Shown: positions 10,604 to 42,087, counted from the stretch's first letter. The stretch is 64,000 bases of DNA from Candidatus Bathyarchaeota archaeon (GCA_963733095.1 CAVTBV010000013.1:288001-352000), one strand, 5' to 3'. Notes: generated from the sequence alone by a model not told the origin. Numbers and translations are program-made.

Positions 10604-11878
10604 ATGACAAGAATTAGAAATGTAAGGAATACTATTAAATTCAAACGATCAATCAAAGCAATATCTCCAGTCATCGCAACGCTACTCATGATAGCTATCG
10701 CAGTCGTCGCCTCACTAGTAGTCTACGCTTGGGTAACAGGCTACATAGGCGGCACCACATCTACCGCTGGAAAAGCAATACAAATACAAAGTTTTGCTTC
10801 CGACCCAACTACTGGTAACTTGGTTATCTACGTACAAAACGTAGGCCAAGGTGATGTAGAACTTAACCAAGACCAAAGCGTTTACGTCGACAGCAACTTA
10901 GTATCTATAACTACACCTGCCCAGGTAAAAATCCCAATAACAATAGGGCAAACTGTAGAATTATTAACAGACCATCCCTACACTGCAGGCACCAAAGTCA
11001 CAATCAAAGTAACAACAACCGACGGAACATTCATGACAACAACAGGCACAGGCTCAAGCGGCTCAGCCAATCCGACAACTCCAGTTGTTACGTATGCAGT
11101 TGATTTTATGTTGGGTTCGGGTGGTTTATCAATGAATCCTGCTGATGGCCCCCATAATGTTGGTGGCGATACCGCGATTTCTGCGACTCCAAGTACAGGT
11201 TATCACTTTACTTCTTGGACTAGCACTGGGTCTATCACTTTTGCTGATGCTAGCGCTGCTTCCACTACTGCGACGGTTAGTGGTGCGGGTTCAATAACTG
11301 CAAACTTTGAAGCAGATACAGTCTATTATAATATTGTTGTTACTCAAAATGCTAATGGCGCAATTACTCCTGCTGGAACAACTAGTTATGCCGCTGGCTC
11401 TACTCCAAGCTTCACGATTACGCCCGATTCTAGTTATCACATTGCGTCTATAACTGCTAATGGTAATCCAGTGACTGTGACTACTCCTGCTGGTCAATCC
11501 TATCAGTTTGCTGCTCTTTCTGCTGATGGTACTTTAATTGCAACATTTGCACAAGACACCCCAACTATGCATGTGTCTTCAATAACTATGTCGGTGTATA
11601 GTCCATACAACAATCATGAAAGAGGCAGAGGAATAGTGACGATAGTTGACTCAAGTGGAAACCCTGTTTATGGCGCTACAGTTTACGGTACCTGGACCGG
11701 AACTGGAGCCACAACTGTTAGCGGAACTACCGATTCAAATGGTCACGTTACGCTAGAGTCTAATACTGTAAACTCTGGATATAATACATATACATTGACT
11801 ATTACTAACGTCGTCAAAAGTGGCTGGACTTACGATTCAAGCGCAAACATAATTACTACCAAAAGCGTGTCAGGCTAA
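10604..11878 (+). CDS. archaeal type IV pilin-adhesin 2 with InlB-B/Listeria-Bacteroides-like repeats and Ig-like tip
   Basis: IKA/ISPVIATLLMIAI class III signal; GYHFTSW...ITANF repeat; ITPDSSYHI repeat. Confidence 0.9.
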   Translation: MTRIRNVRNTIKFKRSIKAISPVIATLLMIAIAVVASLVVYAWVTGYIGGTTSTAGKAIQIQSFASDPTTGNLVIYVQNVGQGDVELNQDQSVYVDSNLVSITTPAQVKIPITIGQTVELLTDHPYTAGTKVTIKVTTTDGTFMTTTGTGSSGSANPTTPVVTYAVDFMLGSGGLSMNPADGPHNVGGDTAISATPSTGYHFTSWTSTGSITFADASAASTTATVSGAGSITANFEADTVYYNIVVTQNANGAITPAGTTSYAAGSTPSFTITPDSSYHIASITANGNPVTVTTPAGQSYQFAALSADGTLIATFAQDTPTMHVSSITMSVYSPYNNHERGRGIVTIVDSSGNPVYGATVYGTWTGTGATTVSGTTDSNGHVTLESNTVNSGYNTYTLTITNVVKSGWTYDSSANIITTKSVSG

Positions 11879-12323
11879 ACTCTAACCCTTTTTCTTTTTT
11901 TTTAAAAAACAATTGTGCGCACTGTATCTCTCGATTAGTTTTATGCGGTTTTGTTGATTTGTTATTGTAGTTCATTTAGGTTAGTGCTGATGTTTTTCTC
12001 CATGTTTCTATGTCTTCGGTTATTTCATGTGCGGTGTTGTCAGGCTCAGTTGTTGCTGCCTTTAGTGGTGTATATTTGGATCCTAATATCCAATGTTTGC
12101 ACTTCGCCTATAGAGAGGTAGGTTTGTGTGGTCTATTTGGGGTTCTATTGGGGGTTCTATGTTGAATCTGCAGATGGGTAGTCGTATTGGAGGTTTTTGC
12201 GGACATTAGTATGTTGGAAAATTGTGCCTTTGCGAGGTAGGTGAAATGTGTGGTGACTGGTTTGGTGGTTTGTTTTGTATTTTTCTTAAATAGTTTATCT
12301 CTGTACACATGCACATCATAGAT

Positions 12324-12515
12324 ATGGCAACTAAATCAATCTCCATCACAGAAGAAGCATACAAAGCATTAATCCGTGAAAAGAGAAACAGCGAAAGCTT
12401 CACCCAAACCATGCTTCGAATCACCAAAACGGGCAAACTCCCCGATTCATTTGGCACATGTAAAATGACTGACAAAGAAAAACAGTTTATCTTGGGCGAA
12501 CTATCTGAAGGATAG
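12324..12515 (+). CDS. vapB: VapB-family antitoxin, probably truncated by a TGG>TAG change
   Basis: MATKSISITEEAYKAL...ESFTQTMLR; the reading frame continues plausibly past the TAG. Confidence 0.7.
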   Translation: MATKSISITEEAYKALIREKRNSESFTQTMLRITKTGKLPDSFGTCKMTDKEKQFILGELSEG

Positions 12516-27359: not shown

Positions 27360-27743
27360 TTAAAATCGTGGTACTTTTCGGATTGAGCACATAAAGGGTT
27401 TCCTATTTTGAGAAGTCTTGAAGGCTAATGTAGATATCTTTACACAACTTGGATATTCGCTGGAATCATCACTTAACAAATCTAGTACCTGCTGTTGGCG
27501 CTCCATGAACTCGAGACCCTTGGGTGTTGACTGAAAAATCACTTTTTCGTTGTTTGAAGATTTCTTAAGCATACCGCTGTTCGACAGGAAAAATAAATAC
27601 TGGTTTAGTTGGGCGAAGCTAAGGTTGGCTTTGAACATGATGTTAGTTTTGGAGGTGCCTTTTTTGGCTATGTCTATGATTTCTGCCATGATTATGAGTT
27701 TATCTCGTCTTTTCGGGGATGTTTCGATTAGTTCTGTGGTCAT
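27360..27743 (-). CDS. winged-helix transcriptional regulator (archaeal type)
   Basis: KRRDKLIIMAEII...KTNIMFKANLSFAQLNQYL...TPKGLEF. Confidence 0.88.
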   Translation of the reverse strand: MTTELIETSPKRRDKLIIMAEIIDIAKKGTSKTNIMFKANLSFAQLNQYLFFLSNSGMLKKSSNNEKVIFQSTPKGLEFMERQQQVLDLLSDDSSEYPSCVKISTLAFKTSQNRKPFMCSIRKVPRF

Positions 27744-28104: not shown

Positions 28105-28120
28105 ATGTATATCAAGGTAT
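28105..28120 (+). repeat. attL core ATGTATATCAAGGTAT
   Basis: Exact match to 42072-42087; ends 62 bp before the integrase ATG. Confidence 0.8.
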
Positions 28121-28182
28121 AAGTAAGCTTCAACTTACTAAAATACCAAAACTTAAATAGTTAAAAAACATCTATTGAATAC

Positions 28183-29532
28183 ATGGCAAGAAAAATAGGG
28201 CAACGAGGAACACAAGGCAACGTATACGGCACAGAATTACTAGATTATAAAAGTGTCAAAAAATGGATGAACAGCTTAGAGCAATCTGCAGTTAGCAAGG
28301 GAAAGTTGCTTACTCATAACGCAAAGAGGCAGCGGCTTGGAAGACTCATGGAATATACTGGGGATGGCGAGATTAACCCCGATTTTCTGCTTGATGAGGC
28401 TAGACAAAACATTGAAGCAGCCGGCACTCGACTGCAAAATTTTTTTACCGCTAAACTGAAAAGCGGCGTTGAATGGAACGGTGCTGTAACCGCTCTTTGT
28501 TTTCTAAGAGGCTTCTACAGCCACAACGACATAGTTTTCCCTAAAAGAATGAAAGTGCCAAAACGCCATATATCCACGGTAAAAAAAACAGATAAGAAAA
28601 CAGAGATTTACGGCTACGACGAATCCACAGACGAAACCATCTTTCGAAACGGCTTGCTGCAGCACTTCTTTGATAATCTAAATTTCCGGGACCAAACAAT
28701 CGGTTTAAGCATCTTCTCATCAGGTGCAGATGCAGCCGACATTTTGAAGCTCAAAATAGGATTCGTTAAAGATGCCAGGGGCAATCTATCAACTGCAAAA
28801 CGGTTCTTCCTGCACGATAACCGATTGAAAGACGGCGTTGAATATAAAACATTTTTCAGCGCTGAAGCCACCGAGTATATAAGACGATATGTTCAGCAAG
28901 AGAGAAGTAAAGCCGAGAACGATGAATTTCTATTTGTTAAAGAGGACGGCGAACAAATTCCCGTTCACGCACTAACAATGAATTTTAGGACAGCCGCCGA
29001 GAAAATGGGTTACCTTATCGATGATGAAAGTAACCCGTTTCGACCTAAAAGATTCCGCTCACTTTTCCGTACTGCCTGTGGAATCGCAAACGTTGACGCT
29101 GGGATGATCATGGCTTTTATGGGTCATTCAAGCGATATGTCAGCTACCTACCTTGAAAAGTCAGATGGGCTTTTCCTAAAGGAATACATCAAAGTTGAAC
29201 CTTATCTAACCGTTTACGGCTTAGATAAATCTCAGATTATAGCGGTTAACGAAAACGTCGACGAACTAAAACAGGAAATTCAAACACTCAAAGAAGAATT
29301 ACTAGATTTAAGAACAGTTGTTACTCCATTAATAGGAATAGCCGAGAGACAACTAAGAGTTTACAGTCGAACTCGAGACCTACATGCAGAGACAGCGCCA
29401 AAACTTGAAGCCATCGATTCACCACTCGCCAAGCAAGCGCGGGAATCGGAACAATACCTAACGGCTGAAGCCGACAAGCTGCAGAAAGAGCTTGATTTAG
29501 CAAAACAAATACTCAACAAAAAACAAGCTTAA
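28183..29532 (+). CDS. int: tyrosine recombinase/integrase with C-terminal coiled coil
   Basis: FRDQTI..SSGADAAD, NRLKDG, FRPKRFRSLF, FMGHSSDMSATY (catalytic Tyr). Confidence 0.88.
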   Translation: MARKIGQRGTQGNVYGTELLDYKSVKKWMNSLEQSAVSKGKLLTHNAKRQRLGRLMEYTGDGEINPDFLLDEARQNIEAAGTRLQNFFTAKLKSGVEWNGAVTALCFLRGFYSHNDIVFPKRMKVPKRHISTVKKTDKKTEIYGYDESTDETIFRNGLLQHFFDNLNFRDQTIGLSIFSSGADAADILKLKIGFVKDARGNLSTAKRFFLHDNRLKDGVEYKTFFSAEATEYIRRYVQQERSKAENDEFLFVKEDGEQIPVHALTMNFRTAAEKMGYLIDDESNPFRPKRFRSLFRTACGIANVDAGMIMAFMGHSSDMSATYLEKSDGLFLKEYIKVEPYLTVYGLDKSQIIAVNENVDELKQEIQTLKEELLDLRTVVTPLIGIAERQLRVYSRTRDLHAETAPKLEAIDSPLAKQARESEQYLTAEADKLQKELDLAKQILNKKQA

Positions 29533-29564
29533 ACCATGAAACGCAAACCCAAACTAAAAAACAG

Positions 29565-29996
29565 CTAACTTTTATTTTCCATGTTTTTCAGAATTTCTTT
29601 TAATGTTTGCCTAAGATCCGTTGTTTGAAGAATCATTTCAATTGCTTGTTGTTTGTTTTGTAAATTAGTAAGCTTTTTGCGGCCCGTTTCAGTTACTTGA
29701 TAAACAGGCTTGTTTGTTTCTTTGTTAATTGCTTTTTCAATTATGTCTTCTTTCATCAGTTCTTTGATGTAGCGCAAAAGCGTTTGTCGTGCGATTCGAT
29801 TTCCAGAAAACACAACTTTTCCACAGTCGACGCAAACAAGTTCTCTCGTATCTTTGTCTACAATGATATGTGAAGAATTGCATATTGGGCATGGACTTTT
29901 GAAAGTTGTTGGTCCAACAAATTGTCTTTCAAGTTCGCTCCAACTTGCCTTTTTCTTTTCAACGATGAAAGATGCTATTTCAAGATCATCAACCAT
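29565..29996 (-). CDS. winged-helix regulator with inserted TFIIB-type zinc ribbon
   Basis: ASWSELE..[CPICNSSHIIVDKDTRELVCVDCG]..ARQTLLRYIKEL...VYQVTETG. Confidence 0.8.
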   Translation of the reverse strand: MVDDLEIASFIVEKKKASWSELERQFVGPTTFKSPCPICNSSHIIVDKDTRELVCVDCGKVVFSGNRIARQTLLRYIKELMKEDIIEKAINKETNKPVYQVTETGRKKLTNLQNKQQAIEMILQTTDLRQTLKEILKNMENKS

Positions 29997-29999
29997 TTT

Positions 30000-30065
30000 A
30001 GTCTACTCCGTTAGACTTTACTCTGTCACATAAGACTTATTAATGTTGTTATCTACTATAGTAGA
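30000..30065. promoter_or_regulatory. divergent promoter with palindromes AGTCTA-N6-TAGACT (30000-30017) and TCTACTATAGTAGA (30052-30065)
   Basis: Inverted repeats between the wHTH regulator and the replication operon. Confidence 0.5.
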
Positions 30066-30203
30066 GTACACTCTAAAGATGCAGATAAACTCGTCCGTGG
30101 ATTATTCGAGACCAATGAAAAATCACCCAAACAAAAGCACGAAGAAACACCATCAAAACCACCGTTAAAAAGAGCCAAGTCAGAGCCTCTTGAAATTGAG
30201 TGT

Positions 30204-30482
30204 TTGCAGGAAAAAACCTACAAGGTTGTCCGAAAGGACAAAGAACAACAGGAGAACAAACCAGAAATGGAACCAGAATACACATTTAACTCAGATTCTC
30301 AATCACAAAGTAAACCCCTTGAAAAACAACCTTATGCTGCATTTGTAGTAAAAGGCGACCCTGAAGAAATAGCTAAACTAAAAGAACACATACTTGAAGA
30401 AACAACCCTTCGCCTAATTTACCAACATAGGGACAGCCGATACCTCAAAGTTTCCCCAGCTACCGAAAAAGACAATTTCTAA
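30204..30482 (+). CDS. hypothetical protein upstream of the replication gene
   Basis: 92-aa ORF co-oriented with and 24 bp before rep. Confidence 0.65.
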   Translation: MQEKTYKVVRKDKEQQENKPEMEPEYTFNSDSQSQSKPLEKQPYAAFVVKGDPEEIAKLKEHILEETTLRLIYQHRDSRYLKVSPATEKDNF

Positions 30483-30506
30483 TCAGACTTTCAGGAACCG
30501 CAAACC

Positions 30507-33350
30507 ATGACCCAAACAGAGCAAATACAGCCAATCATAACCAACAGCACAGCCACAACAAACCTAAACGAGCAACAAAGAATTTTAACACGGCGACTAC
30601 AGGAAGCTGGTGTTTCAACTAAATGTTTCTTGAAAACTGGTTATCAAGGTTGCGACGTTGAAGGCGACAAGAAAGCCTTTGAAAAAGAATGGCCGAACAA
30701 ACTTTACGGACCCGAAGACTTGGAAACTTATCCAAGATGGGGAATCTGTGGGAGATCTCCCTTAGTACCTATCGATTCAGACGACCCAGTAATTTATGAT
30801 GTGTTAAGCCGTGTTCTCCCAGAAACATTTGAAGTCACCAGCCCACGCCGAGGACTACCACACAAATACTTTATCGTTGAAGGACCTCAAGTACCTAACA
30901 AGAAACTACATTACCCAGAAATCTTTGACGAAAAAGGAAACCTAAAAGACTTAGGCGAAATCAGAGCAAACAATCAGTATTTAGTGGCACCCGGCACAAC
31001 CATAAGATATATTGACAAGCAAACAGGCGAACAAAAAACTGGAATGTACACAATAACAAAAGACGTTCCCATTGCAAGAATGACATACCACGACTTCATG
31101 ACAGCGATAAAAACATACATCACCGAAGCCAACGGCAGCACAACACAGACCATAACACAGAAAGAAATGACGGAAGGCGTAACAGAAGGTGCAAGGCATA
31201 CAAAAGCCGTGAGTTACGCTGGAAAGCTAGTCCACCGCTTAAAATTTGACTATGAAACAGCACTAATTCACCTAAAAACATGGAACAACAGCTTATGTAA
31301 ACCACCATTACCCGATGAAGAAATAACACGAATACTCAAAGATGTTTACGGCTATGCAGCAAAAGAAAAAGGTGTATCCTACGAGGAAGCGTTAAAAGGT
31401 GAAAACGAACAAAGCTTTTCAGAACAAATACTACAAATAGAAGCCGAAGCAACAGCCACAATAAAAGAAGATTCGGTCACTTTAGACCATATTAACGACA
31501 TAGAAAACCCAGAATATGCAGGAAAACCCATCATAGTTGAAGCCGTTATCTCAAGTAACAGCTTAAGTTATACAATACCCTCAGAAGTTGAAGCCATAAT
31601 CAAAGAGGAAGACACCGATGAAACTCGAGAAGAAAACAAAAGCATCAAAATAAACGATCCGCTAAACTTGAATTTTATAACAGTTACAACCGACCAACAG
31701 AAACGACAACTTAGAAAAATGTTCAAGGACAAAGCATTTGCACTAAACATAACGAAATATCGAGCTGCCTACATGGTCCGCATAAGACCACAAGTACAAA
31801 CTCTAACACAGAAAAACGGAAAAACCATTGATGACAAAGACAGAGAATACAAACATTTAGATATTCTCATAGTAAGTGACAAACCGTTAGCCTTCCAATC
31901 AAGTACCCGAATAAAACTTACTGCATTACCTCTTCCACACCCAAAAACACAACGAACAACTCTGCTTGCTTACAAAGTATCTTTTCCAGAATCAACAGAA
32001 AAATTCAGCACTGAAAAACTTGATTGCTTGAAATCAAAGTTCGAAGGCAAAACAGTAAAAGAACGCTGGAACTGGATACTTGACAACACTGAATTATACA
32101 CTCAAATCATTGGCAGACGCAACATAGCCGCGGAAACATTTCTAATAAGCTTCACTCCAACAACTAACATTGAATTATACGGCAAACTCGGCCATGGCTG
32201 GGGATTAGGCGACATAATTGGCGACACAACCACTGGCAAAAGCGAAACAGTAAAAAAAATATTAGCTCTACTTTCTGCAGGCATGTTCATTAGCGCGGAA
32301 ACTGCGAGCATAACAGGATTAACTGGCACAGCAACACAAATGGAAAATGGCACTTGGTTCGTTGACTGGGGCTTTTTACCACTCATGGACCGGAAACTTT
32401 TAGCGATGGATGGATGCCACAAAATAAGCCCCAGTGATTGGGCGCGTACAGCAGAGGCAGAACGCGAAGGTAAATTAGACATAAACAAAGCTGCAAAAGC
32501 CATAGCACCAGCCCGAACCAGACAAATAAAAATTTACAATGCCGTAGACAAAGAAGCATATGGGTTTCCAACCAAACCATTAAGTGAATTCCTTTATCCA
32601 GCTCAAGCATTACAAACTGTGGCAGATCAAACAACCATAGCACGTCGAGACATCGCTGTCTTCGTAAACAGTAGAGACGTCACAGCCGAACAAGTCAACC
32701 AAAAACCAACAACTCAACCAGAACCAGAACTTACAATATTAAGCGAATGTCTACGATGGGCATGGAGCAACACGGCAAAAATAACATTCACTGACGAAGC
32801 CTTAACTCATCTGCTTTCAAAATCTACAGAAATGTACAACACTTTCTATTATGCGCCAATTCCACTCGTTTCAATCGACATGAAATTTAAACTTGCACGA
32901 CTTAGCATCTCAGCGGCTTATGCTACATTATCAACCAACGATTACACAGACCTAATAGTGACAAAGGAACACGTTGAATTAGTCAGTGATATTCTCATAG
33001 ATGAGTACAGCAAAGCAGGATTAAACATGTTAGCTCAAACACAGAAATTCAACAAAATAACAGTTGAAGACGTGCAAACACTCATAACAAAAATTGAGAC
33101 AGCTATTCCCAAAGAACCTATAGAACAAACTAAAATCATTGAAATCCTAACCTTCATACTACATGCTGGAAGAGTCACACAGGACCAAATCAAAACCTGT
33201 TTTGAACTAACAGAGAAAAGCCAACTTAGACCGTTAATGGCGACACTGCAAACATTAGACTTAGTTAAAATGAACAGAGGATACTACGCAACCACAAAAC
33301 TCATAGAAGCCTACAAAGCAACAGAGAATTTTGCGTCCTTGCGTTCTTGA
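30507..33350 (+). CDS. primase-polymerase (primpol + PriCT) fused to MCM-like AAA+ helicase
   Basis: WGICG..LVPIDSD, TSPRRGLPHKYF, GEIRANNQYLVAPG (primpol); EGARH...WNNSLCKPPLPDEE (PriCT); GDTTTGKS, ASITGLTGTA..WFVDWGFL..MD, EREGKLDINKA (MCM-like); C-terminal wHTH. Confidence 0.85.
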   Translation: MTQTEQIQPIITNSTATTNLNEQQRILTRRLQEAGVSTKCFLKTGYQGCDVEGDKKAFEKEWPNKLYGPEDLETYPRWGICGRSPLVPIDSDDPVIYDVLSRVLPETFEVTSPRRGLPHKYFIVEGPQVPNKKLHYPEIFDEKGNLKDLGEIRANNQYLVAPGTTIRYIDKQTGEQKTGMYTITKDVPIARMTYHDFMTAIKTYITEANGSTTQTITQKEMTEGVTEGARHTKAVSYAGKLVHRLKFDYETALIHLKTWNNSLCKPPLPDEEITRILKDVYGYAAKEKGVSYEEALKGENEQSFSEQILQIEAEATATIKEDSVTLDHINDIENPEYAGKPIIVEAVISSNSLSYTIPSEVEAIIKEEDTDETREENKSIKINDPLNLNFITVTTDQQKRQLRKMFKDKAFALNITKYRAAYMVRIRPQVQTLTQKNGKTIDDKDREYKHLDILIVSDKPLAFQSSTRIKLTALPLPHPKTQRTTLLAYKVSFPESTEKFSTEKLDCLKSKFEGKTVKERWNWILDNTELYTQIIGRRNIAAETFLISFTPTTNIELYGKLGHGWGLGDIIGDTTTGKSETVKKILALLSAGMFISAETASITGLTGTATQMENGTWFVDWGFLPLMDRKLLAMDGCHKISPSDWARTAEAEREGKLDINKAAKAIAPARTRQIKIYNAVDKEAYGFPTKPLSEFLYPAQALQTVADQTTIARRDIAVFVNSRDVTAEQVNQKPTTQPEPELTILSECLRWAWSNTAKITFTDEALTHLLSKSTEMYNTFYYAPIPLVSIDMKFKLARLSISAAYATLSTNDYTDLIVTKEHVELVSDILIDEYSKAGLNMLAQTQKFNKITVEDVQTLITKIETAIPKEPIEQTKIIEILTFILHAGRVTQDQIKTCFELTEKSQLRPLMATLQTLDLVKMNRGYYATTKLIEAYKATENFASLRS

Positions 33351-33900
33351 CACGTCAAAAAAGAACCCCTATACAAAAAATCCTAACAGTGACTGAAAAA
33401 CAAGCAATAAAACCTTATTGAAAAAGAAAAAGTTCCAGATATAGTTTCTATTCAGAAAAATAAAGAGGGGGGTTTCAATTCTGAGGCGGGCAAAGACGGC
33501 ACAAACGGCAAAAATAAAAAACAAAGATATTGTTCTGAAGAATGTATCAATTTCGATAAGTCTTCTTGTAAGAATAGAAGCGGTCACTGGGGAGACCTAA
33601 ACATGAAATCATTATTACCGTTGAATTGTGTTGGTTTCGAAGCGCTTAATCTAGGCGCCTAACTATTTTTATCTTTTCAATGCCTTGTCTTTTTTAAGGC
33701 TGTAGACGCTAACAAACGTTAAGTTTTCAATAGTTTTCATTTTTTTATGCTACAAATATGGCATTTTTGAAAGTTTATTAAACTTCACTTTTTACCGACA
33801 AAAGCTGACAAAAACTGACACCTACAGAAAAAACGCCACATAATGCTACAGTTTTAGGTTTTTGATTGGTTGTTGTTTGCTCTGTTTGTTGCAGAATAAA
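33325..33900. other. candidate replication origin (short direct and inverted repeats after rep)
   Basis: TTTGCGTCCTTGCGTTCTTG with imperfect inverted partner CAAAGACGGCACAAACGGCAAAA; CCGACAAAA-GCTGACAAAA-ACTGACA iteron-like run near 33796-33820; AT-rich. Confidence 0.4.
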
Positions 33901-34029
33901 ACCAAATTGATTAAGGAAAACTGAAAGAAATTGCAATAATTTGCAACTTTGAGAGGTATAGAAATTGACTGAAGCAAACAAGCCCCGGAAGAAATCTGCA
34001 AGTTTTAAAGTGCAGCGTCACGCCAACGA

Positions 34030-34257
34030 TTGATTGCGCTCTATAATACTGTTAACCGTTTTAGTGTTGGGAAAGCAGCTGAAAGCCTCGGGGTTAGCCG
34101 CTGGTCCGTTGCCCGTGACTTGTCTTTTTTACGCGAGCATTCATTGTTAAGTCCCAAACGGAATCAAACAGTGCCTTACATAGTTGTTGAGTCTGGAGCC
34201 GAGTTTATGCAGCGATTCAACGCAGCACATCAAAGTAACAGTGGAAAGAAAGTTTAG
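34030..34257 (+). CDS. small HTH DNA-binding protein
   Basis: SVGKAAESLGVSRWSVARDLSFL. Confidence 0.75.
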   Translation: MIALYNTVNRFSVGKAAESLGVSRWSVARDLSFLREHSLLSPKRNQTVPYIVVESGAEFMQRFNAAHQSNSGKKV

Positions 34258-34321
34258 AGGATAAAACAAAAGAAGCGAATGTGGGGAGAGGGAAATATGC
34301 AAAAATTCAAAGTGTTCAACT

Positions 34322-34699
34322 ATGACCACCAAAACACAGCAAAACACAACCAATCAAGGAATCCAAAACCAAAAACCACAATATGTAATCTATACAGGCT
34401 CGCAAGAATTTAACTGTCACTTCCATCTATGTAGACGGCGTGAAATTCCATTTTTAGCCGTAAGCAGAAGGGGCGATATATACAGCGTTGAGTTTGATTT
34501 AATCACGTCTGAATCTCTTTTAAATGCCTTCGGATATGAAGACCTTTTAGCTTTTAGGGATGATTTGTTTGAGCGTAAGCTGTGTAGTGATGCTTTGACG
34601 AGTAGAGGCGTCGGCGTGTTTAAGGTTAAGAGACAATGTGAAGCTGAAGTGATTGAGAGACTTTGGCAAATAATAACATCAAATCTTGGGGTTGCTTAA
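34322..34699 (+). CDS. hypothetical protein
   Basis: 125-aa ORF co-oriented with the HTH gene. Confidence 0.6.
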   Translation: MTTKTQQNTTNQGIQNQKPQYVIYTGSQEFNCHFHLCRRREIPFLAVSRRGDIYSVEFDLITSESLLNAFGYEDLLAFRDDLFERKLCSDALTSRGVGVFKVKRQCEAEVIERLWQIITSNLGVA

Positions 34700-34925
34700 T
34701 TCGTCTCTTAAGGTTACTACATACAACATCCTTCTATCTTTTTGAAACAGTGAAGGCTAAGGCTCGAGATAGAGTTAGTAAATACTTAGCTCAGTTGTCA
34801 GAGTGAGAATAAGAAAATTCAACTCTTTTTTTTACAGTCAATTCAATAAAGCAACAAGTTTTCTCAATTTTAGTTAAAACCGAGAGATAACGAGGGAGCT
34901 GTTTGAGGGATAACAAGTTTGCTGA

Positions 34926-35537
34926 TTGTTGGGGTTGGTTATGTTAACCTATTCACTAGCAGTTTTTATATTGTTACTCATCGCTATTTTGTTACTGAAA
35001 AAGAGAAGAAAAGGGATACCTTTGGAAAGGGAAGATAGGATTTTAACATATGTGGGGTTGATTAGCGCAATAATTCTGGGATTTCTTCAGGCAATCTTTC
35101 AAGTTAATCCATCAATCTTGGGACCATATACGCAAACTTTTTCCTGGATTTTATTCTTATCAATGTTTGTCATCATTGCCGGAATCATCGCGTTATATTT
35201 TAAAAATAAGGGTATTACTGCTAAGGATGTGGAAAAAACAGATTTTTATTCTCCAATACATGCGATGATTGTAAAAGTAAATATAGAAACACCTCGCAAA
35301 CAAGCTCTAGCGTTCAGCGGAATTGGAAAGTGGGTTAACGTGAAACAGTTAAGAATAGACTATCAAAACGTATCTTCAGCCTTTACTCAACACGCAACCA
35401 AGTTTAAAGATGAAGATTTGACAAAGTGGGATGAAATAGAGAAACAAATTAAAGCTTATTCAAACGGCGGCGGTTTCTACATTAACAAAGATGTCCAGAA
35501 ATGGTTTGATGATTTAGAAACCAGATATAATCACTAA
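34926..35537 (+). CDS. three-TM membrane protein with soluble C-terminal domain
   Basis: Three hydrophobic segments. Confidence 0.7.
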   Translation: MLGLVMLTYSLAVFILLLIAILLLKKRRKGIPLEREDRILTYVGLISAIILGFLQAIFQVNPSILGPYTQTFSWILFLSMFVIIAGIIALYFKNKGITAKDVEKTDFYSPIHAMIVKVNIETPRKQALAFSGIGKWVNVKQLRIDYQNVSSAFTQHATKFKDEDLTKWDEIEKQIKAYSNGGGFYINKDVQKWFDDLETRYNH

Positions 35538-35621
35538 GCCTCGCGTTTGGAGTTACTCAGTTCTGGGATGTCCAAGAGAATAGCCGTTTGAAGAGTTAAG
35601 TTGGTTATATTAAAATAAAAT

Positions 35622-36083
35622 TTAGGGAAGTTGTTTTCCGCAGGAAGAACAAAACTTCACATCTGTATTTGCTAACCCTTTCCCACAGAAAGAGCAATAT
35701 CTCGGCGCATTTGAAAACGCTTGTAATGTACTCCATAACCGCTCCATGGCACTCCAACCTTCACGTCTAGGTATTCCAGCTCCTAGGGAAGTTGGAGAAA
35801 AATCTTGATCCTTCAATCCATATATTGTTATCCAACCTTCAGTTTTAGCCAATATGCCGTCTTCCGACGGTTGAAAAGAGACTTGGAAATATTTTGGCGC
35901 TGTTAGAAAGCCTACTCCCCAACGTCCTTTAATGTGGTTAGGGCTGCTTTCAGTTACGCTTACGCTATTTTTTGCGAACCAGTCTGTTACTGTACTTTTT
36001 ACTTCTTCTTTAGTTCTGCCTAAAATCAAAATATCTTTTCTTGTTCTATCCATCGCGACCCCTAAAAATGATATAGCAATCAA
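35622..36083 (-). CDS. protein with C-terminal zinc ribbon (likely start ~36053)
   Basis: YCSFCG...FCSSCG. Confidence 0.75.
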   Translation of the reverse strand: MIAISFLGVAMDRTRKDILILGRTKEEVKSTVTDWFAKNSVSVTESSPNHIKGRWGVGFLTAPKYFQVSFQPSEDGILAKTEGWITIYGLKDQDFSPTSLGAGIPRREGWSAMERLWSTLQAFSNAPRYCSFCGKGLANTDVKFCSSCGKQLP

Positions 36084-36113
36084 GCGCTTATAACATTATT
36101 TATCTCTCCATTA

Positions 36114-36275
36114 TTACTGGAGTTTGTCACCGCATAAGGGGCACTCTGAAGGCTCTTTCTTTTGAGTGTTAATTAATTTGTATGAACAGAAATAGCAGAA
36201 GGAAACTTGGCATTTAGGGCAAAAGCAAGAGCCCTCATCAATCATTTTTCCGCAAGTGCTACAAGACTTAATCAA
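36114..36275 (-). CDS. small protein with four CxxC motifs (RING/double-ribbon-like, 53 aa)
   Basis: Hand translation (M)IKSCSTCGKMIDEGSCFCPKCQVSFCYFCSYKLINTQKKEPSECPLCGDKLQ. Confidence 0.75.
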   Translation of the reverse strand: MIKSCSTCGKMIDEGSCFCPKCQVSFCYFCSYKLINTQKKEPSECPLCGDKLQ

Positions 36276-36618
36276 ATTGTGATCTATCGTTTTTAGGTTT
36301 GGATTGCTTTATAAAATTATTTATTGAAACTGAAAAATTTGTTACTGTAGAACAGGTTTTTTTATTCCTAGCAACCTTTGCATTATTTTTATTTTTCTTT
36401 TGGGTTATAATTGAAACCCAAAACAAGTTTGACCTTAAAAATCAATGTTTTAGGAGTTAGTGTCGAAATTCGATACAAGAAACGGTAAAGGCATGTCTGT
36501 TAATGACTGCCTCCTCTTTTTTTGTTCAATTATCCACCGGTTGATATTTCAACATAATAACCTGGTTATAACTCAGTGGGCGGTTGTTTTTTTACACCAC
36601 CATAAAACCTAAAGTTTT

Positions 36619-37140
36619 GTGAAACAAGCAGATTTTCGTCAAATCCGCAAACTCAAAAGAAAAGGCACCATAATAAATGGTGTCTCAGTTGACCGCGTAG
36701 AACATAATTTCAACCTTGTACTTTCACACCTAAGACAGGTTGGCACATATGAACGGACCCTCAAAAAACACAATGTTTTAGTTATTTACCAACTCGTGCG
36801 TCGCTGCCTTGAAAACTCAGAATCAGATAAGCTTGATTTAGCCGTTGAATTTGAGCATCTACACGACTTTGACAACACCGACGATTTCATAGATTATTTA
36901 GAGAAACAACATTCTATTTCTAAAACTTACAGAGACGCCGTTCTTAAAGACATGGCTTTAACCGAGCTTGAAGAACATGCAGACATTTTAAATAAAAAAA
37001 TAGTCAACAAACACGCTGTAGTGCTCGGAGAAAACGAGGTAGCTATCCCAGAAATTGACTATTATTATTTTAAGCGTAGAGATGCTCAACTGAAAAAGCT
37101 TGAAGTCGCCGCTTGTGGATGGCCGCTGAGTCTCTGTTAG
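36619..37140 (+). CDS. hypothetical protein
   Basis: 173-aa ORF, first of a four-gene run. Confidence 0.65.
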   Translation: MKQADFRQIRKLKRKGTIINGVSVDRVEHNFNLVLSHLRQVGTYERTLKKHNVLVIYQLVRRCLENSESDKLDLAVEFEHLHDFDNTDDFIDYLEKQHSISKTYRDAVLKDMALTELEEHADILNKKIVNKHAVVLGENEVAIPEIDYYYFKRRDAQLKKLEVAACGWPLSLC

Positions 37141-37165
37141 TATTTTCCAAACCCCTTGAGGACCC

Positions 37166-37594
37166 TTGCAAACATACCAAACCGTCTTAATCAGTTTTCA
37201 AAGCAGCCAAACCGTACCCGCCGGAACCATAAAGAAAAAGCGTAAAGGCCGCCCCTTCGAAATGTTCAGTGAGCAAGAACTAAAAGAAATCTTTGAAGGC
37301 ATATTAAGCGTTAACCAGGAAAAGCGGCGACAAGCCTTCAAGAGTTTTGGAAAAGTCAAAATAAGAAAAGCCATCAACATTTTTAAAACAGACTTTGGGA
37401 AGCAAGGAATTATTTTTAGAAAGGAATGTAGAATCCATAAGAGAGCTAAACTTTTTTACGGTTGGAGCGGCTACTCGGAGGGCGTTCGGGTTAAATGTTT
37501 ATTTGAAGGCTGTACGTCTTTGAATTCTCATTTTGAACCAATGATTTACGGCGCCACTAACGAATTTAATGAAGAGTCAGAGTTTTACGGATAA
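37166..37594 (+). CDS. hypothetical basic protein with possible C/H metal site
   Basis: KKKRKGRP...; CRIH...CLFEGC. Confidence 0.6.
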   Translation: MQTYQTVLISFQSSQTVPAGTIKKKRKGRPFEMFSEQELKEIFEGILSVNQEKRRQAFKSFGKVKIRKAINIFKTDFGKQGIIFRKECRIHKRAKLFYGWSGYSEGVRVKCLFEGCTSLNSHFEPMIYGATNEFNEESEFYG

Positions 37595-37649
37595 TGAATA
37601 ACTCTTTTTTAGACATATTAGCTGTAGCGGATAATCACCAAATTTATTA

Positions 37650-37901
37650 GTGAAACCAATGAGCCAAAATGATGTATATTGCGAATCTCGAAAAACAGCC
37701 CTAATTCAGCAAATCAACAAACTCACGGGAGAAAACGAATCCTACTCAGACTGGACCCTAAGCCAACTTGACGTTTTCCACGATAAACTTGTAACAAGAT
37801 ACCAAACGTTTCAAGAAAAGCATGAAGCTGAACTCAAAGGCGAAAAGTTGACGGTTGGCAACAGTCTCCTAGGCTTAAAAATGCATGAGCTGCCAAAATA
37901 A
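37650..37901 (+). CDS. hypothetical protein
   Basis: TAATG overlap with the next ORF. Confidence 0.65.
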   Translation: MKPMSQNDVYCESRKTALIQQINKLTGENESYSDWTLSQLDVFHDKLVTRYQTFQEKHEAELKGEKLTVGNSLLGLKMHELPK

Positions 37902-38236
37902 TGACTCAAAAAGTAGGTGAAAACAAAACTATGTCACAAACACAAGAAATCGAGCTGCCAACCATACAGACCGGGACAGGATTCAGTTCAGCCCCAGACT
38001 ATACGCTACAATTCAAGAACGCGGAATCTTTAGAGTTATGGGCTAAACAAGTAAAAGCTATTCCTTTTGCTAAAAGCCATTTCTTAGTTGAAGGCCATAT
38101 TTGCCTCTGTCAAATTGAGCAGCCAGAACCGCCAGCAAAAGAAATACAGAAGAAGCCCTCTGTCAGCGCCTCGGTTGGAAAATCTCAATCGTTTTACTAC
38201 GACCCAGCTTCAGGCAGTATGAAGAAGTACTTTTAA
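37901..38236 (+). CDS. hypothetical protein
   Basis: Translationally coupled to the preceding ORF; T-rich tract follows. Confidence 0.65.
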   Translation: MTQKVGENKTMSQTQEIELPTIQTGTGFSSAPDYTLQFKNAESLELWAKQVKAIPFAKSHFLVEGHICLCQIEQPEPPAKEIQKKPSVSASVGKSQSFYYDPASGSMKKYF

Positions 38237-38559
38237 ACTTCAAACTTTTTTCTTTTTTTGTTATCCTTTATTTTACAATCAAATGTACTTTTTACATAAC
38301 AATAAATTTTAGTGTGGACTCGGCGCCGAAACCAAGAGAGAGGGTGACTTGGGGTAGAAAAAATAAACGCCGAGTCACGCACCAATAAATTCGGAGTTTT
38401 GAAAAAGGATGCCAAACCTCGACAATACCCTAAAAAAGAAAAAGAAAAGTGTTAAACACTTGCTAATTTCTGCAATGCTTCTTCAGCCCATGAAAAAAAC
38501 CAAAAAAAGAAATACGATAAAAATTTAAAATTCAAGTAACCAAGTTTGCTGTTTTTGAA

Positions 38560-38952
38560 TCATTTAGTTATTTCTTTGCTTCTGCTTATAGCCCTAAGGA
38601 TTAATTCATTCTGTCGAATCATTATCTTGTTTTGGTCAATAATTGCTTTCAATCCAGAAGCTAAGATTTGGTCGGTTGAATTTAAAGTCAATATACTTCC
38701 TATATACATCCACTTTGTGCCAGCCTCATGTGATCGAAGATTAGTCATATCCTCAACAATCTTTTTCTTTACTTCTTCATCACTCATTTCGTCCGAAATG
38801 AGGAGTTCTACTACCTTCTTCATTGGTTGTTGTTCTATCGGTGGCTCCTCTTTGATGCCTTTCACGTGTACTTTATCATGATGGTCAAACATTTCATCTT
38901 CAGAACTAAATAGTTTACCACATTCAGGACAATATACCTCTAATTTTCCCAT
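38560..38952 (-). CDS. C2H2 zinc-finger protein
   Basis: CPECGKLFSSEDEMFDHHDKVH; C-terminal LKAIIDQNKIMIRQNELIL. Confidence 0.8.
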   Translation of the reverse strand: MGKLEVYCPECGKLFSSEDEMFDHHDKVHVKGIKEEPPIEQQPMKKVVELLISDEMSDEEVKKKIVEDMTNLRSHEAGTKWMYIGSILTLNSTDQILASGLKAIIDQNKIMIRQNELILRAISRSKEITK

Positions 38953-39037
38953 GAAGTCCCTCTCACTTTAGATGCAATGGTTCTATTTCTCTTTTTGTGC
39001 TAACTATTGATTAACCTTAAAAGGCAAATCAGCTCTA

Positions 39038-39211
39038 ATGGCAAGCATGCAGGCGAGAGCTAAAAAACGTAAAATCAGCGTAACACTAGACGAAAACTTA
39101 ATCGCGTGGCTAGATCAACAAACAAAAACCTATGTTTTTCACAGTCGTAGCGAAGGAATAGAAAGAAGTGTTTTAGCACTCAAACGAGAAATGGAAAAAG
39201 AGGAAACTTAG
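39038..39211 (+). CDS. ribbon-helix-helix (CopG-like) regulator, 57 aa
   Basis: Hand translation ..KKRKISVTLDENLIAWLDQQTKTYVFHSRSEGIERSV.. Confidence 0.8.
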   Translation: MASMQARAKKRKISVTLDENLIAWLDQQTKTYVFHSRSEGIERSVLALKREMEKEET

Positions 39212-39236
39212 TTGTTTTCCGTTTTGTTTTGGCAGT

Positions 39237-40037
39237 TTAGTATAGTTTGAACCATATTCCGCCTGTGCCATCATAGTTTCTTCCGAACGTCAATAGTGGG
39301 TGGGTGTCAGTAAGAGAAACTTGGTAAGCTTCCCAGCCTTCATGTGATGCACCTGGATATAGCGAAGTTGATAATGCGGGGTCTGGAGGAACAATTGAGT
39401 GATAATCGTATTCTACTCCGTTTTCTGATATGGCATCGAAGTATACTGGAGATACATTGTATACGGTGTCTGCGGTTGGTCCTGTGAGGTATTCAAATTG
39501 TATTTTGACAAGGATGTATTCGTAACCTGAGTTTGGTGCAGAGTTGAACATGTTGGCTGCATGGATGCGGTTCCATGCTTCTGCGCCTCTCACGGTTTCT
39601 AGAAGTGTTATTCTGGCGCTGTATTTTCCGCTTAACCAATCATATTGGATAGTTAAGGGTGTTGCTGCTGGCGCGGGGTTAGATCGTGCATATCCTGTCG
39701 GTATGGAAGTTGAGCTTGGAGTGGGTGACGGTGAAGCTGTAGGTGTTGGAGATGGAGTTGGTGAAGGGGTTGGTGAGGGTGTAGGTGAAGCTGTTGGCAT
39801 TGGAGTAGATGTGGGTTCAACATTATCTGTTGGGTCCGATGTTGGCATAATCTCGGGCTGGATGGACTGGGTAATCGTGGGTGAAACAGTGGGATTAGAT
39901 GTTGGCGTGGGAGTTGGCGTAGGGCTTGACATATAGCTTGAGTCTAATATGTTTGGGAGTAAATATGCTCCAGCTCCTGAGGATATTGCGAGTATGACAA
40001 TTATTACAATTATTGATAGAGTTTTTCGAGTTTTCAT
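39237..40037 (-). CDS. membrane-anchored surface protein with P/T/S linker and DUF4352-like Ig domain
   Basis: N-terminal TM, PTPS repeats, ARSNPAP...RGAEAW..I..AN.FN..P..GYEYILVK...LYPGASHEGW. Confidence 0.8.
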   Translation of the reverse strand: MKTRKTLSIIVIIVILAISSGAGAYLLPNILDSSYMSSPTPTPTPTSNPTVSPTITQSIQPEIMPTSDPTDNVEPTSTPMPTASPTPSPTPSPTPSPTPTASPSPTPSSTSIPTGYARSNPAPAATPLTIQYDWLSGKYSARITLLETVRGAEAWNRIHAANMFNSAPNSGYEYILVKIQFEYLTGPTADTVYNVSPVYFDAISENGVEYDYHSIVPPDPALSTSLYPGASHEGWEAYQVSLTDTHPLLTFGRNYDGTGGIWFKLY

Positions 40038-40309
40038 TCACTTTCATCTTATTTTTTTGACTAATGCTCTATTTTTGGTTTATCCTATCGGGTTTATGCT
40101 ATCTTGACGTTTGAATTAATTGCGGATGATAACATTTTATCTGTCAGCATTCGTTAATCGTTTTATTTTTCGCCGTGTGACTTTGCAGATTGCGTCGAAG
40201 GCTGCCAAGACCCTTTGACAGAACGTTTGCTGTGATATTTTGCATCATTATTATTTCATCGAGAGACATCGTTGACGTTTGAAAGAACAAGTTCAATTTG
40301 CTTGCAATA

Positions 40310-40489
40310 CTATTTGGTGCTTGCTTTAGCTATAAATTGTTTAAGAAGCTCTTGGTCGTCTGAGATTTGTTTTGGGTCCTGTTTTCTGGCCCTGCAAAGC
40401 AAAGTGCGGAATCCTTCAAGTTTTCTCCCAGTTTCTAAATAATCTTTTATGATTTGTCGTTCGCTGGGTGTCAAGATATAATCGCGCAT
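40310..40489 (-). CDS. small hypothetical protein, possible repressor (59 aa)
   Basis: Hand translation MRDYILTPSERQIIKDYLETGRKLEGFRTLLCRARK...; AAGGAG SD upstream. Confidence 0.7.
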   Translation of the reverse strand: MRDYILTPSERQIIKDYLETGRKLEGFRTLLCRARKQDPKQISDDQELLKQFIAKASTK

Positions 40490-40505
40490 TTTAGTGTCTC
40501 CTTTT

Positions 40506-40613
40506 GTTACTATGATTGAATCAGTATTTTAAATGTTTTCTTATTTGCTACAGCACAATTGCTACAACAATAGTAACGCTTAAATAATTGCTGTGTGTTA
40601 CAGTGATTGTAGC
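40506..40613. promoter_or_regulatory. three 17-bp operator-like sites GYTAC-N7-GTARC in a divergent promoter
   Basis: 40506-40522 (degenerate), 40561-40577 and 40597-40613, interleaved with two TATA-like boxes. Confidence 0.6.
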
Positions 40614-40626
40614 AAGGTGAAATAAG

Positions 40627-40770
40627 GTGGAAGCAACAACTCAAACCAAAAAAATGTTTTATTGCCACACCGCAAAAAAAGAGATCCTCGAAGAATGGTG
40701 CCCACAAGCCTGCTATATCTGCACTCAAGCAAACCGTGAAGGAAACGAAACCTACCATTGGAGCGGCTAA
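40627..40770 (+). CDS. small Cys-rich protein (47 aa)
   Basis: GTG start after AGGTGA SD; FYCHT...WCPQACYIC. Confidence 0.5.
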   Translation: MEATTQTKKMFYCHTAKKEILEEWCPQACYICTQANREGNETYHWSG

Positions 40771-40772
40771 AA

Positions 40773-40907
40773 ATGCCCTCAGTTTTTATTTGTCCAAAAT
40801 GTGGCCGCACAAACAGCTACATCCGCGACAACCGCCGAATTGAACATTGCAGCGAATGCGGCACACCCCAAACATCCAGCCCAATCACCTCAGGAAGGAT
40901 GTTTTGA
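40773..40907 (+). CDS. small zinc-ribbon protein (44 aa)
   Basis: MPSVFICPKCGRTNSYIRDNRRIEHCSECG. Confidence 0.65.
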   Translation: MPSVFICPKCGRTNSYIRDNRRIEHCSECGTPQTSSPITSGRMF

Positions 40908-41105
40908 AATGAAGTGTACGCTTGAATGGTTAACCGGCGAGAAGACCTGGCGAACATCCAAGTGCTAGTTGTGGTCTTTGTGGTTGCAGAGATATATTTC
41001 AAGAGTGAATCATTTTTAAAAATTAGTGTTAAAAAACTTTTTAAGTTATCAAGTAAAACGATGTTATAACGGTGCTATTATGAGCAAACTTTAGGAGGGA
41101 AAACT

Positions 41106-41351
41106 TTGAAAAAATCCACATTCAGGCGATATAGAGTAGCCATCATTTTTTTATTTGCTCTAGCAGCGGTTTCAATCTATATTCTTGTCTCAATTAGCGG
41201 TAAACTACCACAACCAATGGATCTAACGATTGAAGGTCCTAATGGTGTATTCACCGTGACAGCTACCGGAATTGCAGAACAGATTATAGCGCCTATTCTT
41301 GGAATCTGTACAGGTGTCTCTTTCATAATAGCCACTATAAGAAAAAAGTAA
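41106..41351 (+). CDS. small two-TM protein
   Basis: AGGAGG SD; two hydrophobic helices; basic termini. Confidence 0.65.
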   Translation: MKKSTFRRYRVAIIFLFALAAVSIYILVSISGKLPQPMDLTIEGPNGVFTVTATGIAEQIIAPILGICTGVSFIIATIRKK

Positions 41352-41431
41352 ACAAGAGATTACAAAATTAACTTCCTTTTTTTTGAGTAACAATCTATCT
41401 TAGCCAAAATAAGTGAGAAAACTTAGAATTA

Positions 41432-41761
41432 TTAAGTTGCATAATCGATTTTTCTGTTTCTTTCAGCCTCTTGTTGCTGCTTAAGTATTTCATTACGGTT
41501 CAACCTTAAATCATAAAAGTACACTGGAAGCCCAACTGAAAATAATAATGTGCCGGACATTAAAACAATTAAATTTTTGAAGGTGCCAAAAAAGATATAA
41601 TTCATAGCACCATAAGGCAAAAAGAAACAACCAATTGTGAACATAATTAACGCTAAAATTCCTATTTCGTCTATTCTGTCTTTTCCCAACTTCAAAAACA
41701 AAGTTATCCCTGTATTGTTGAGGGTGCTTCTATTATGAACTATTTTTGGCTCAAACAACAA
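41432..41761 (-). CDS. small two-TM protein
   Basis: Two hydrophobic helices; start uncertain. Confidence 0.5.
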   Translation of the reverse strand: MLFEPKIVHNRSTLNNTGITLFLKLGKDRIDEIGILALIMFTIGCFFLPYGAMNYIFFGTFKNLIVLMSGTLLFSVGLPVYFYDLRLNRNEILKQQQEAERNRKIDYAT

Positions 41762-41781
41762 ACGGCAGCTGTAATGTAGAG

Positions 41782-41851
41782 AGTTGAGGGGTTGCAGCTG
41801 TCCAATCAGAACTCCCTTTTCCCCCCTAAATACTTGTGCAACCCCTCAACT
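41782..41851. repeat. 15-bp perfect inverted repeat with 40-nt loop
   Basis: AGTTGAGGGGTTGCA (41782-41796) / TGCAACCCCTCAACT (41837-41851). Confidence 0.85.
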
Positions 41852-42071
41852 TAACCAATAATCAGCCAAGTTAGCATAGAAGCTTTTAGCCAAAATCACT
41901 ATTCGCGAACTTTTCCGAGTAATTATTACAGAAATAAGGGGTTAATTTATTAGAATGACAACCTTTCACTTCTTAAAGTAAATAGGTGAGTAATTGAGAA
42001 TACAAATGCAAACTGTGTACTTGCTATCTCCCATGACAAAAAAGTATACAAGCTTTAGTAAGCTCGGAGCT

Positions 42072-42087
42072 ATGTATATCAAGGTAT
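42072..42087 (+). repeat. attR core ATGTATATCAAGGTAT, overlapping the putative por TATA box
   Basis: Exact match to 28105-28120; ends 40 bp before the porG start. Confidence 0.8.

Follow-up and report, generated by a model that had tools for sequence, protein, structure and literature searches.

The 64,000-bp stretch of DNA from Candidatus Bathyarchaeota archaeon analysed here (GCA_963733095.1, CAVTBV010000013.1:288001-352000; hereafter the window, with positions counted from its first letter) contains, from 28105 to 42087, an element of 13,967 bp that is probably an integrative plasmid, or 'cryptic integrated element', inserted just upstream of the operon for pyruvate:ferredoxin oxidoreductase (POR). 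A preliminary description of this DNA had proposed an integrated mobile element with these borders, which could be an integrative plasmid, a satellite or a provirus. The empty sites of relatives do end at the repeat that bounds the element, and the evidence favours the first of the three options. The locus is a cleanly delimited example, with attL, attR, empty attB, a second occupant and apparent scars at one site, and it anchors a large family of integrase-plus-replicase modules (51 of 106 related loci).

The element is bounded by the 16-mer ATGTATATCAAGGTAT, found as exact direct copies at 28105-28120 and 42072-42087 with the predicted start-to-start spacing of 13,967 bp. This att pair accounts for all copies of the 16-mer on both strands of the whole genome (2,835,923 bp, 16 contigs). 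Alone, a 16-bp repeat is unremarkable, because at least one 16-bp direct repeat occurred somewhere in the 64-kb window in 50% of 200 Markov shuffles and because the genome holds 259 such pairs spaced 2-40 kb apart. A repeat partner within 150 bp upstream of the integrase start was found in only nine of 2000 shuffles. The two ends are made up as follows:

28105..28120, + strand: attL core, 16 bp, identical to attR, with a remnant of the host left arm on its left.
28121..28182, + strand: P' arm, from the core to the integrase start, homologous to the P' arm of the element in the related genome G223.
28183..29532, + strand: tyrosine integrase, 449 aa (PF00589, 40.1 bits; cutoff 27.1).
41762..42071, + strand: P arm, non-coding; its homologues are the right end of the G223 element and the solo remnants of genomes G011, G261 and G269.
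42072..42087, + strand: attR core, 16 bp, at which conserved host sequence begins.

On the left side of attL about 14 bp of the ancestral host arm are left (gttttcagagaaaa / gttttcagaGAAAA), with 11 of 14 positions equal to the relatives' attB in a by-eye count. At attR the host right arm is kept: the core lies 41-50 bp upstream of the start of POR gamma, and the right flank is the POR operon in the order gamma, delta, alpha, beta. The P' arm carries the palindrome AGTAAG-n6-CTTACT and the P arm a perfect 15-nt inverted repeat (41782-41796 / 41837-41851). GTAAGC half-sites flank the core on both sides, and in the P arm GTAAGC stands beside the core. The core itself, 62 bp upstream of the integrase start, contains a TATA-like TATAT. 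Integration sets the upstream arm of the host before the integrase gene and an arm of the element before POR, with a conceivable effect on transcription. No tRNA gene was detected by ARAGORN in the 64-kb window. The GC content of the element is 38.7%, as compared with 43.1% for the genome, which places it in the lowest 3.5% of 1,313 14-kb windows.

Of 24 genomes of the genus that were searched, 22 contained a match to the POR operon (69-80% DNA identity), and the 15 kb upstream of it was compared in eight same-genus relatives. In all eight a radical-SAM gene is divergent from POR, within a few hundred bp in seven and 3 kb off in one (G003), and in all eight a single copy of the core lies between the radical-SAM gene and POR gamma. 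BLAST homology to the genome studied here starts exactly at window position 42072 in five relatives and 3 bp later in a sixth; for the remaining two the fetched piece overlapped POR too little for a BLAST row of at least 200 bp. In the aligned intergenic regions of most relatives, ...gtttttgcgttttactaGAAAA precedes the core and tcg..aattta follows it. These single-copy intergenic cores are, judged by the alignment, empty attB sites, and their boundaries coincide with the 16-bp repeat, as the preliminary description had anticipated for related genomes.

The same site is occupied in G223, where a 6.9-kb element bounded by ATGTATATCGAGGTAT + ATGTACATCAAGGTAT lies between the radical-SAM gene and POR. 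Both host arms are intact there, attL and attR are copies of the same core, and the P and P' arms are homologous to those described here. The G223 integrase is 82% identical to the present one and contains an in-frame stop, and the element is without an MCM-like replicase. Three further genomes show the order radical-SAM gene, about 95 bp, a 160-bp homologue of the right arm, core, POR:

G011:C3:92888-93071: solo right-arm remnant and core.
G261:C1:32509-32692: solo right-arm remnant and core.
G269:C15:21877-22059: solo right-arm remnant and core.

These solo right arms look, by their sequence, like scars of lost elements. Given the G223 occupant and the three scars, the POR-promoter site is a recurrent integration target. 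In the closed relative G003 (C1:1128665-1131697) the radical-SAM gene and the core are about 3 kb apart, with a left arm unlike that of other relatives; this interval may be a further insertion at the hot spot. When 120 genomes of the genus were searched at the DNA level, none contained the whole element, and the matches were scattered modules only. Thus its genes are patchy across the genus and are not part of a stable syntenic core, the possibility that the preliminary description had named as fatal to its proposal. In the same search the Pro/Thr-linker repeats at window 39694-39816 (12-nt period) matched similar linkers in dozens of genomes. We rejected these matches as related elements, because the repetitive Pro/Thr-coding stretch inflates DNA-search counts.

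The integrase open reading frame (ORF) is intact, and the gene is whole after integration, 62 bp from attL. Its family profile matched XerA at 2.1e-39, and an AF2 model (pLDDT 76.4), with a two-domain fold of this kind, had XerA (3e-6), XerH and Cre as its best Foldseek matches. The TM-scores were low, 0.28-0.5, because of domain orientation and an extra coiled coil, which is C-terminal (residues 349-448). The catalytic residues K216, K289xxR292, H315 and Y335 are present, and K216, R292, H315 and Y335 are conserved. SSV1-type integrases have the consensus R...KxxR...Y, and those of the pNOB8 type have R...YxxR...Y and a gene that stays whole on integration (PMC8371274). The present protein has the KxxR and the Y of the SSV1 type and lacks the first R; the suicidal splitting of that type is not seen here, the integrase being whole and the core lying upstream of its start rather than inside the gene. 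Conversely, it has KxxR in place of the YxxR of the pNOB8 type, though its gene stays whole. In an alignment of 57 family members the column of the first catalytic arginine (Arg-I) holds Arg in 47, Asp in six, Gly in three and Glu in one, and the ten sequences without Arg include this integrase and those of G223 and of two further elements, in G277 and G114. Elements with an Asp-form integrase show fresh-looking site-specific insertions.

The second large gene encodes a replicase, and a conserved DNA motif lies just downstream of it:

30507..33350, + strand: replicase, 947 aa, with a probable PrimPol, PriCT-1, an MCM-like AAA+ helicase and a C-terminal winged-helix region (Pfam).
33351..33660, + strand: remains of the C-terminal tail, still in the reading frame of the replicase and behind four stop codons.
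33467..33512, + strand: conserved DNA motif GGGGGGTTTCAATTCTGA-n4-(GGCAAAGAC)(GGCACAAAC)(GGCAAA), candidate replicase-binding site or origin.

The replicase matched Pfam MCM (35.8 bits; cutoff 23.3) and PriCT_1 (24.0 bits; cutoff 21.1). Prim-Pol PF09250 fell just below its cutoff (22.5 bits; cutoff 22.8), and full-length relatives carry a precomputed PF09250; by inspection, the N-terminal part shows an IDSDD motif and a conserved His. Matches at the C-terminus were weak and of winged-helix type. Residues invariant among 21 sequences are G572, D573, T575 and K578, in the Walker A segment GDTTTGKS, and D635, N678, R713 and D715, which on our reading of the alignment may be Walker B, sensor or arginine-finger residues. 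The protein is not a cellular MCM: the archaeal MCM model NF040949 scored 18.4 bits, with a cutoff of 940, and the host's own MCM, at C1:24423, is 26% identical to it over about 100 residues.

The motif is followed by an AT-rich non-coding stretch that extends to about 34029. The DNA that encodes the tail peptide at 33489-33512 is identical at 24 of 24 nt in eight fetched loci, which represent four distinct variants by their flanks, whereas codon identity is just 42-51% where residues are conserved in other parts of the replicase. This difference suggests that the motif is kept at the DNA level beyond coding need. In three more distant loci (L175-L177) the motif is intergenic and forms an inverted pair of arms of about 65 bp right downstream of the replicase gene. 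When the 5' part is included, the unit that is conserved reads GGGGGGTTnCnATTCTGA-n3-4-(GGCAnAnAC)x3, about 45 nt with three 9-bp units; the bare pattern GGCA-N5-GGCA-N5-GGCA occurs three times in the genome. From these features we infer a candidate replicase-binding site or origin.

In the mechanism that we propose, the tyrosine integrase would recombine the 16-bp core of the circular element (attP) with the identical attB of the host, located in the promoter region of the POR gamma-delta-alpha-beta operon, to give attL and attR, and its own gene would be kept whole, 62 bp from attL. The free circle would be replicated by the element's own PrimPol-PriCT-MCM-like protein, probably from the AT-rich stretch and the iteron-like motif that directly follow the replicase gene. 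Zn-ribbon/winged-helix, helix-turn-helix (HTH), C2H2 and ribbon-helix-helix (RHH) proteins are likely regulators, and the membrane and secreted proteins would be variable cargo. Excision and cell-to-cell transfer would also belong to such a cycle.

The helicase part of the replicase (approximately residues 310-945) has relatives in at least 175 clusters at E of 0.001 or below, and the named ones are mostly labelled Bathyarchaeota or Bathyarchaeia, which agrees with an assignment to Bathyarchaeia. Alignment-based scans yielded 106 related loci, 26 in species-representative genomes (mostly Bathyarchaeia, some Nitrososphaeria) and 80 in metagenomes; single-protein locus searches of genome contigs found nothing. 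When the ORFs of the 106 loci were clustered, one recurrent partner emerged, a tyrosine integrase cluster that includes the present integrase and is represented in 51 loci. The remaining clusters were of small proteins or of cargo; an Eco57I-type restriction-modification gene, ParB and an ABC ATPase are examples of the latter. The proteins of this element other than the replicase had only six matches among the loci. One locus (L131), a 9,832-bp contig with integrase, replicase and DNA methyltransferase, has a 63-bp terminal overlap, which indicates a circle. The N-terminal primase module of the replicase is exchangeable, since close helicase relatives bear other, unrelated N-termini. Plasmid records gave just three matches, and the best-covering match in a phage collection was the MCM-domain protein of Bacillus phage phBC6A51 (23.9% identity over 65% of the replicase).

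The sizes of related elements range from 6.9 to 14.5 kb. The closest relative, an element of about 14.5 kb in G114, has a different integrase and has in common with the present one the replicase's C-terminal part, HTH75, orf173, orf142, the C2H2 protein, orf59 and orf92. The 8.2-kb element of G277 is collinear (integrase, Zn-ribbon/winged-helix protein, orf92, orf173, orf142, orf83, orf111, orf59); a 607-aa P-loop protein replaces the replicase, and there are no membrane proteins. Two related elements reside in the same genome as the one described here, at C5:~3000-12400 and C13:~458000-464200 (L074, L075). Only the N-terminal PrimPol module is common to their replicases and this one, at 51-53% identity. 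Both encode a 376-377-aa Zn-ribbon protein that may be their integrase, and the C5 replicase has a TAA stop.

No family of capsid, terminase, portal, packaging, conjugation (ATPase) or defence proteins was found in the element with Pfam, PHROGs, NCBIfam or PADLOC, in agreement with the preliminary description. The viral contig collection contained no relatives of the family, in single-protein or alignment-based locus scans. These negative results, together with the plasmid-type cargo of the family (restriction-modification, ParB), a circular relative, and a G277 element without membrane proteins, favour a plasmid. A simple repeat scan located a single CRISPR array (C1:190710-192934; 30 repeats of 37 nt, 29 spacers). 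The preliminary description had suggested looking for spacer matches, and this lead failed: none of the 29 spacers, all from the genome itself, had a match of at least 23 nt in the element, elsewhere in the genome or in the fetched loci, and the DNA search of the 120 genomes showed no spacer-like perfect short match to the element.

It seems unlikely, though the copy bears several marks of decay, that we are dealing with a defective, immobile remnant fixed in the chromosome. These marks weigh against a plasmid that is still in working order. The replicase tail that relatives keep past residue 947, with FSE(V/A)GKDGTNGK inside it, is here cut off by four stops. In the integrase, the alignment puts D183 in the Arg-I column (GADAAD, where the consensus is GxRxGE). 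The ORF orf55 is probably, by comparison with its 120-aa counterpart in G223, a truncated remnant of a gene of that type. The left flank, finally, has been rearranged: beyond about 14 bp left of attL the ancestral intergenic sequence is gone, with the breakpoint within about 20 bp of attL, and the radical-SAM gene, the ancestral neighbour of POR, now lies 65 kb to the right in inverted orientation (C13:395.5-397.2 kb). The sister element in G223, with its interrupted integrase gene and no MCM-like replicase, also fits a history of decay. On the other hand, attL and attR still agree at all 16 bp of the core, both the integrase and the 947-aa replicase have open frames, and all invariant helicase residues of the family are present. 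Moreover, Asp at Arg-I is no one-off lesion, because six of the 57 family members, which come from different sources, share it. The preliminary description's reading of both ORFs as intact-looking therefore stands as far as open frames go and falls short at the replicase tail. Because of the lost tail, the missing first arginine and the rearranged left flank, the present mobility of the plasmid is uncertain, and this copy may be partly decayed.

The breakpoint in the left flank derives either from a recombination event or from an assembly error. A 200-kb comparison with two closed relatives revealed many rearrangements in the genus, and a single inversion as the cause of the displaced radical-SAM gene was rejected in view of this heavy rearrangement.

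It is distinctly improbable that the element represents a provirus from an archaeal virus group yet undescribed, for instance spindle-shaped or pleomorphic, with capsid and membrane proteins among its small orphans. Twelve of its ORFs are without assignment and could hide structural proteins, a point that tells against the plasmid. The element encodes a secreted protein, a protein with three transmembrane (TM) segments and two small ones, of 81 and 109 aa, each of which has two hydrophobic segments, and the major capsid proteins of spindle viruses consist of two hydrophobic helices, as reported for Huangdivirus (PMC10848311). The G114 relative also encodes a 1032-aa protein (G114:C5:190002-193100; L068:10002-13100) with Laminin_G_3 and a phage straight-fibre family match (phrog_3890, 2.4e-22), which hints at a viral lifestyle in the family. 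This fibre-like protein has no counterpart in the present element. A 321-aa protein of G114 was considered as a prohead protease and set aside, since it had no Pfam or PHROG match and only unnamed homologues. For the 20 ORFs of the element PHROGs gave no structural match; the only two matches, to phrog_6394 (E 0.0045) and to a transcriptional repressor family (E 0.0015), were weak and non-structural. VP1, VP2 and the AAA+ ATPase of spindle viruses had no match in the family libraries, the two small 2-TM proteins notwithstanding, nor was any packaging ATPase of the AAA+ type or DnaA-like ATPase found. The G114 and G277 elements have not kept the membrane proteins, the 8.2-kb backbone of the latter having none at all, and both the viral contig collection and the 29 spacers of the genome were silent. 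The Bathyarchaeia viruses described in PMC10848311 include head-tailed and filamentous viruses and one spindle provirus with VP1-3. That provirus, Huangdivirus, resembles the present element in being integrated, in having a tyrosine integrase and in the class of its host, and differs from it in its VP1-3 homologues and AAA+ ATPase, none of which was found here.

A satellite, self-replicating and packaged or transferred by a helper virus, is very unlikely: the element does have its own integrase and replicase, no transfer or capsid genes and a small size like that of its relatives (6.9-14.5 kb), but no helper, packaging signal or helper-derived gene was recognised, and nothing sets such a satellite apart from a plain integrative plasmid. 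In Sulfolobus, pSSVx and pSSVi depend on SSV for packaging and transfer. We give equally little credence to a bolder proposal, in which this element and those of G114, G277 and G223 would form a new lineage of small temperate viruses or satellites of Bathyarchaeia; their structural proteins would be the small membrane orphans, their recombinases a subgroup without Arg-I, and their target the TATA-like POR core, with host promoter elements placed before the integrase gene.

The class that fits the element best is known from Thaumarchaeota as cryptic integrated elements (CIE). Their median size is 17 kb, they encode an integrase and diverse element-type replication proteins, MCM and primpol fusions among them, and how they transfer is unknown (PMC6563490). 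The likeness lies in the integrase and element-type replication protein, a size mostly below 20 kb, winged-helix and RHH regulators and variable cargo, in the lack of viral or conjugative hallmark genes, and in the intergenic sites of some CIE (PMC6563490). The homologues of the present element, unlike CIE, are labelled Bathyarchaeia, and its target is a specific POR promoter. Moreover, its PrimPol-PriCT part is fused to an MCM-like helicase, whereas the text on CIE describes fusions with superfamily 3 helicases (PMC6563490). It may overlap with individual elements of that study. Replicases of mobile elements that combine an archaeo-eukaryotic primase (AEP), PriCT, a helicase and a winged helix are on record, some with MCM-family helicases (PMC5862659). 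The replicase described here resembles them in having a probable AEP primase, PriCT-1, an AAA+ MCM-family helicase and a winged helix in the same order (PMC5862659). It differs from the MCM-domain protein of phBC6A51, with which its identity is the 23.9% over 65% given above, in that its family is archaeal and has several unrelated N-terminal primase modules.

Integrative elements of Sulfolobales, Thermococcales and Methanococcales include pSSVi/pXZ1, pTN3, pT26-2 and those of the TKV type. Like the present element they are described as small circular replicons that integrate by a tyrosine recombinase and have an MCM or primase-helicase (PMC8371274, PMC6563490). Their SSV1-like integrases, of the SSV type, split the gene and target tRNA genes (PMC8371274, PMC6563490), whereas here a promoter region is the target and the gene is whole. 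Asgard archaea, too, have been described as having integrated and circular elements with tyrosine integrases; these integrases are said to be close to those of Bathyarchaeia (PMC11529989). Our search of the literature, which covered article texts as distinct from supplementary tables, found no description of this element family, or of integrative plasmids, in Bathyarchaeia. The element is real, yet as an example of archaeal integrative plasmids, which have been little studied, it is fairly ordinary. The leads that it offers are the candidate origin motif, an integrase subgroup without the canonical first arginine, and a hot spot inside the promoter of a central-metabolism operon, and its replicon parts could seed genetic tools for a class that is without any.

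The remaining features of the element are the following:

29565..29996, - strand: TFIIB-type Zn-ribbon and winged-helix protein, 143 aa (PF08271, 31.9 bits; cutoff 29).
30204..30482, + strand: orf92, upstream of the replicase gene; homologues in the G114, G223 and G277 elements.
34030..34257, + strand: HTH protein, 75 aa; weak DeoR-like HTH match, 55% identical homologue in the G114 element.
34322..36275: cargo block of orf125 (+), a 203-aa 3-TM protein (+), a 153-aa Zn-ribbon protein (-) and a 53-aa double Zn-ribbon protein (-).
36619..38236, + strand: backbone operon of orf173, orf142, orf83 and orf111; collinear homologues in G277, orf173 and orf142 also in G114.
38560-38952, - strand: C2H2 Zn-finger protein, 130 aa; motif-level, weak match.
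39038-39211, + strand: RHH-like protein, 57 aa; weak match; divergent from the C2H2 gene, the pair spanning 38560..39211.
39237..40037, - strand: secreted protein, 266 aa, with a signal/TM segment, a Pro/Thr-rich linker and a DUF4352-like C-terminal domain.
40310..40489, - strand: orf59, of the small backbone proteins the one conserved most widely; homologues with 61-74% identity in the G114, G223 and G277 elements.
40801..40968, + strand: orf55; the G223 counterpart has 120 aa.
41106..41761: two small membrane proteins (81 aa, +; 109 aa, -); two TM segments predicted in each.

In all, 20 plausible ORFs cover 76% of the length of the element. The preliminary description had counted about 20 small orphans; the figure of 20 is correct if the integrase and the replicase are included, some 17 ORFs are small, and those without any match in Pfam, PHROGs, NCBIfam or PADLOC number 12. 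It had also put the Zn-binding proteins at six or more. Four are clear (29565-29996, 35622-36083, 36114-36275 and 38560-38952) and two only possible (37166-37594 and 34322-34699), so that six is the upper end. The two divergent operator regions that it listed do exist as divergent regions, but there are at least three of them (29997-30203, 36276-36618 and, from 38953, the one between the C2H2 and RHH-like genes); short palindromes occur in two, where they are candidate operators. The Zn-ribbon/winged-helix protein, a candidate regulator by its domains, is divergent from the replicase operon and has a 71% identical homologue in the G277 element.

The cargo block has no homologues in the G114 or G277 elements. 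The best-conserved backbone protein is orf173, modelled from a 27-sequence alignment as a helical bundle (pLDDT 83.4). The protein gave no Foldseek match at E of 0.001 or below and no usable protein-atlas match, and the best VIA Z, 5.9, was below the chance level for helical bundles. Two distant homologues scored 25.7 and 27.2 bits against Gins51_C (cutoff 27). A role of orf173 as a GINS-like replication accessory was not borne out, its profile having found no GINS in the PDB and its model no Foldseek match at the same E. TM segments are predicted in three ORFs. One protein is secreted and has the Pro/Thr linker and a DUF4352-like domain, the latter as a protein-atlas lead only. The only PADLOC match, a weak one (E 1e-4), was discounted, as it falls on the low-complexity linker of this protein.

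The gene adjoining attL on the left encodes a winged-helix (HTH_45) protein (27360-27743) with a 74% DNA homologue in host context in G003, and the left flank therefore looks like chromosome and not like a second element. A tandem second element on this side was rejected on the same ground and because the left flank holds no further att copy. The 28 kb to the left of the element are GC-poor (39.3%). Within them, window 1-26500 (GC 33-42%) encodes GNAT/FemAB-like acetyltransferases, an AMP-binding-like enzyme and a 945-aa pilin-like protein with InlB B-repeats, and is probably a variable cell-surface island.

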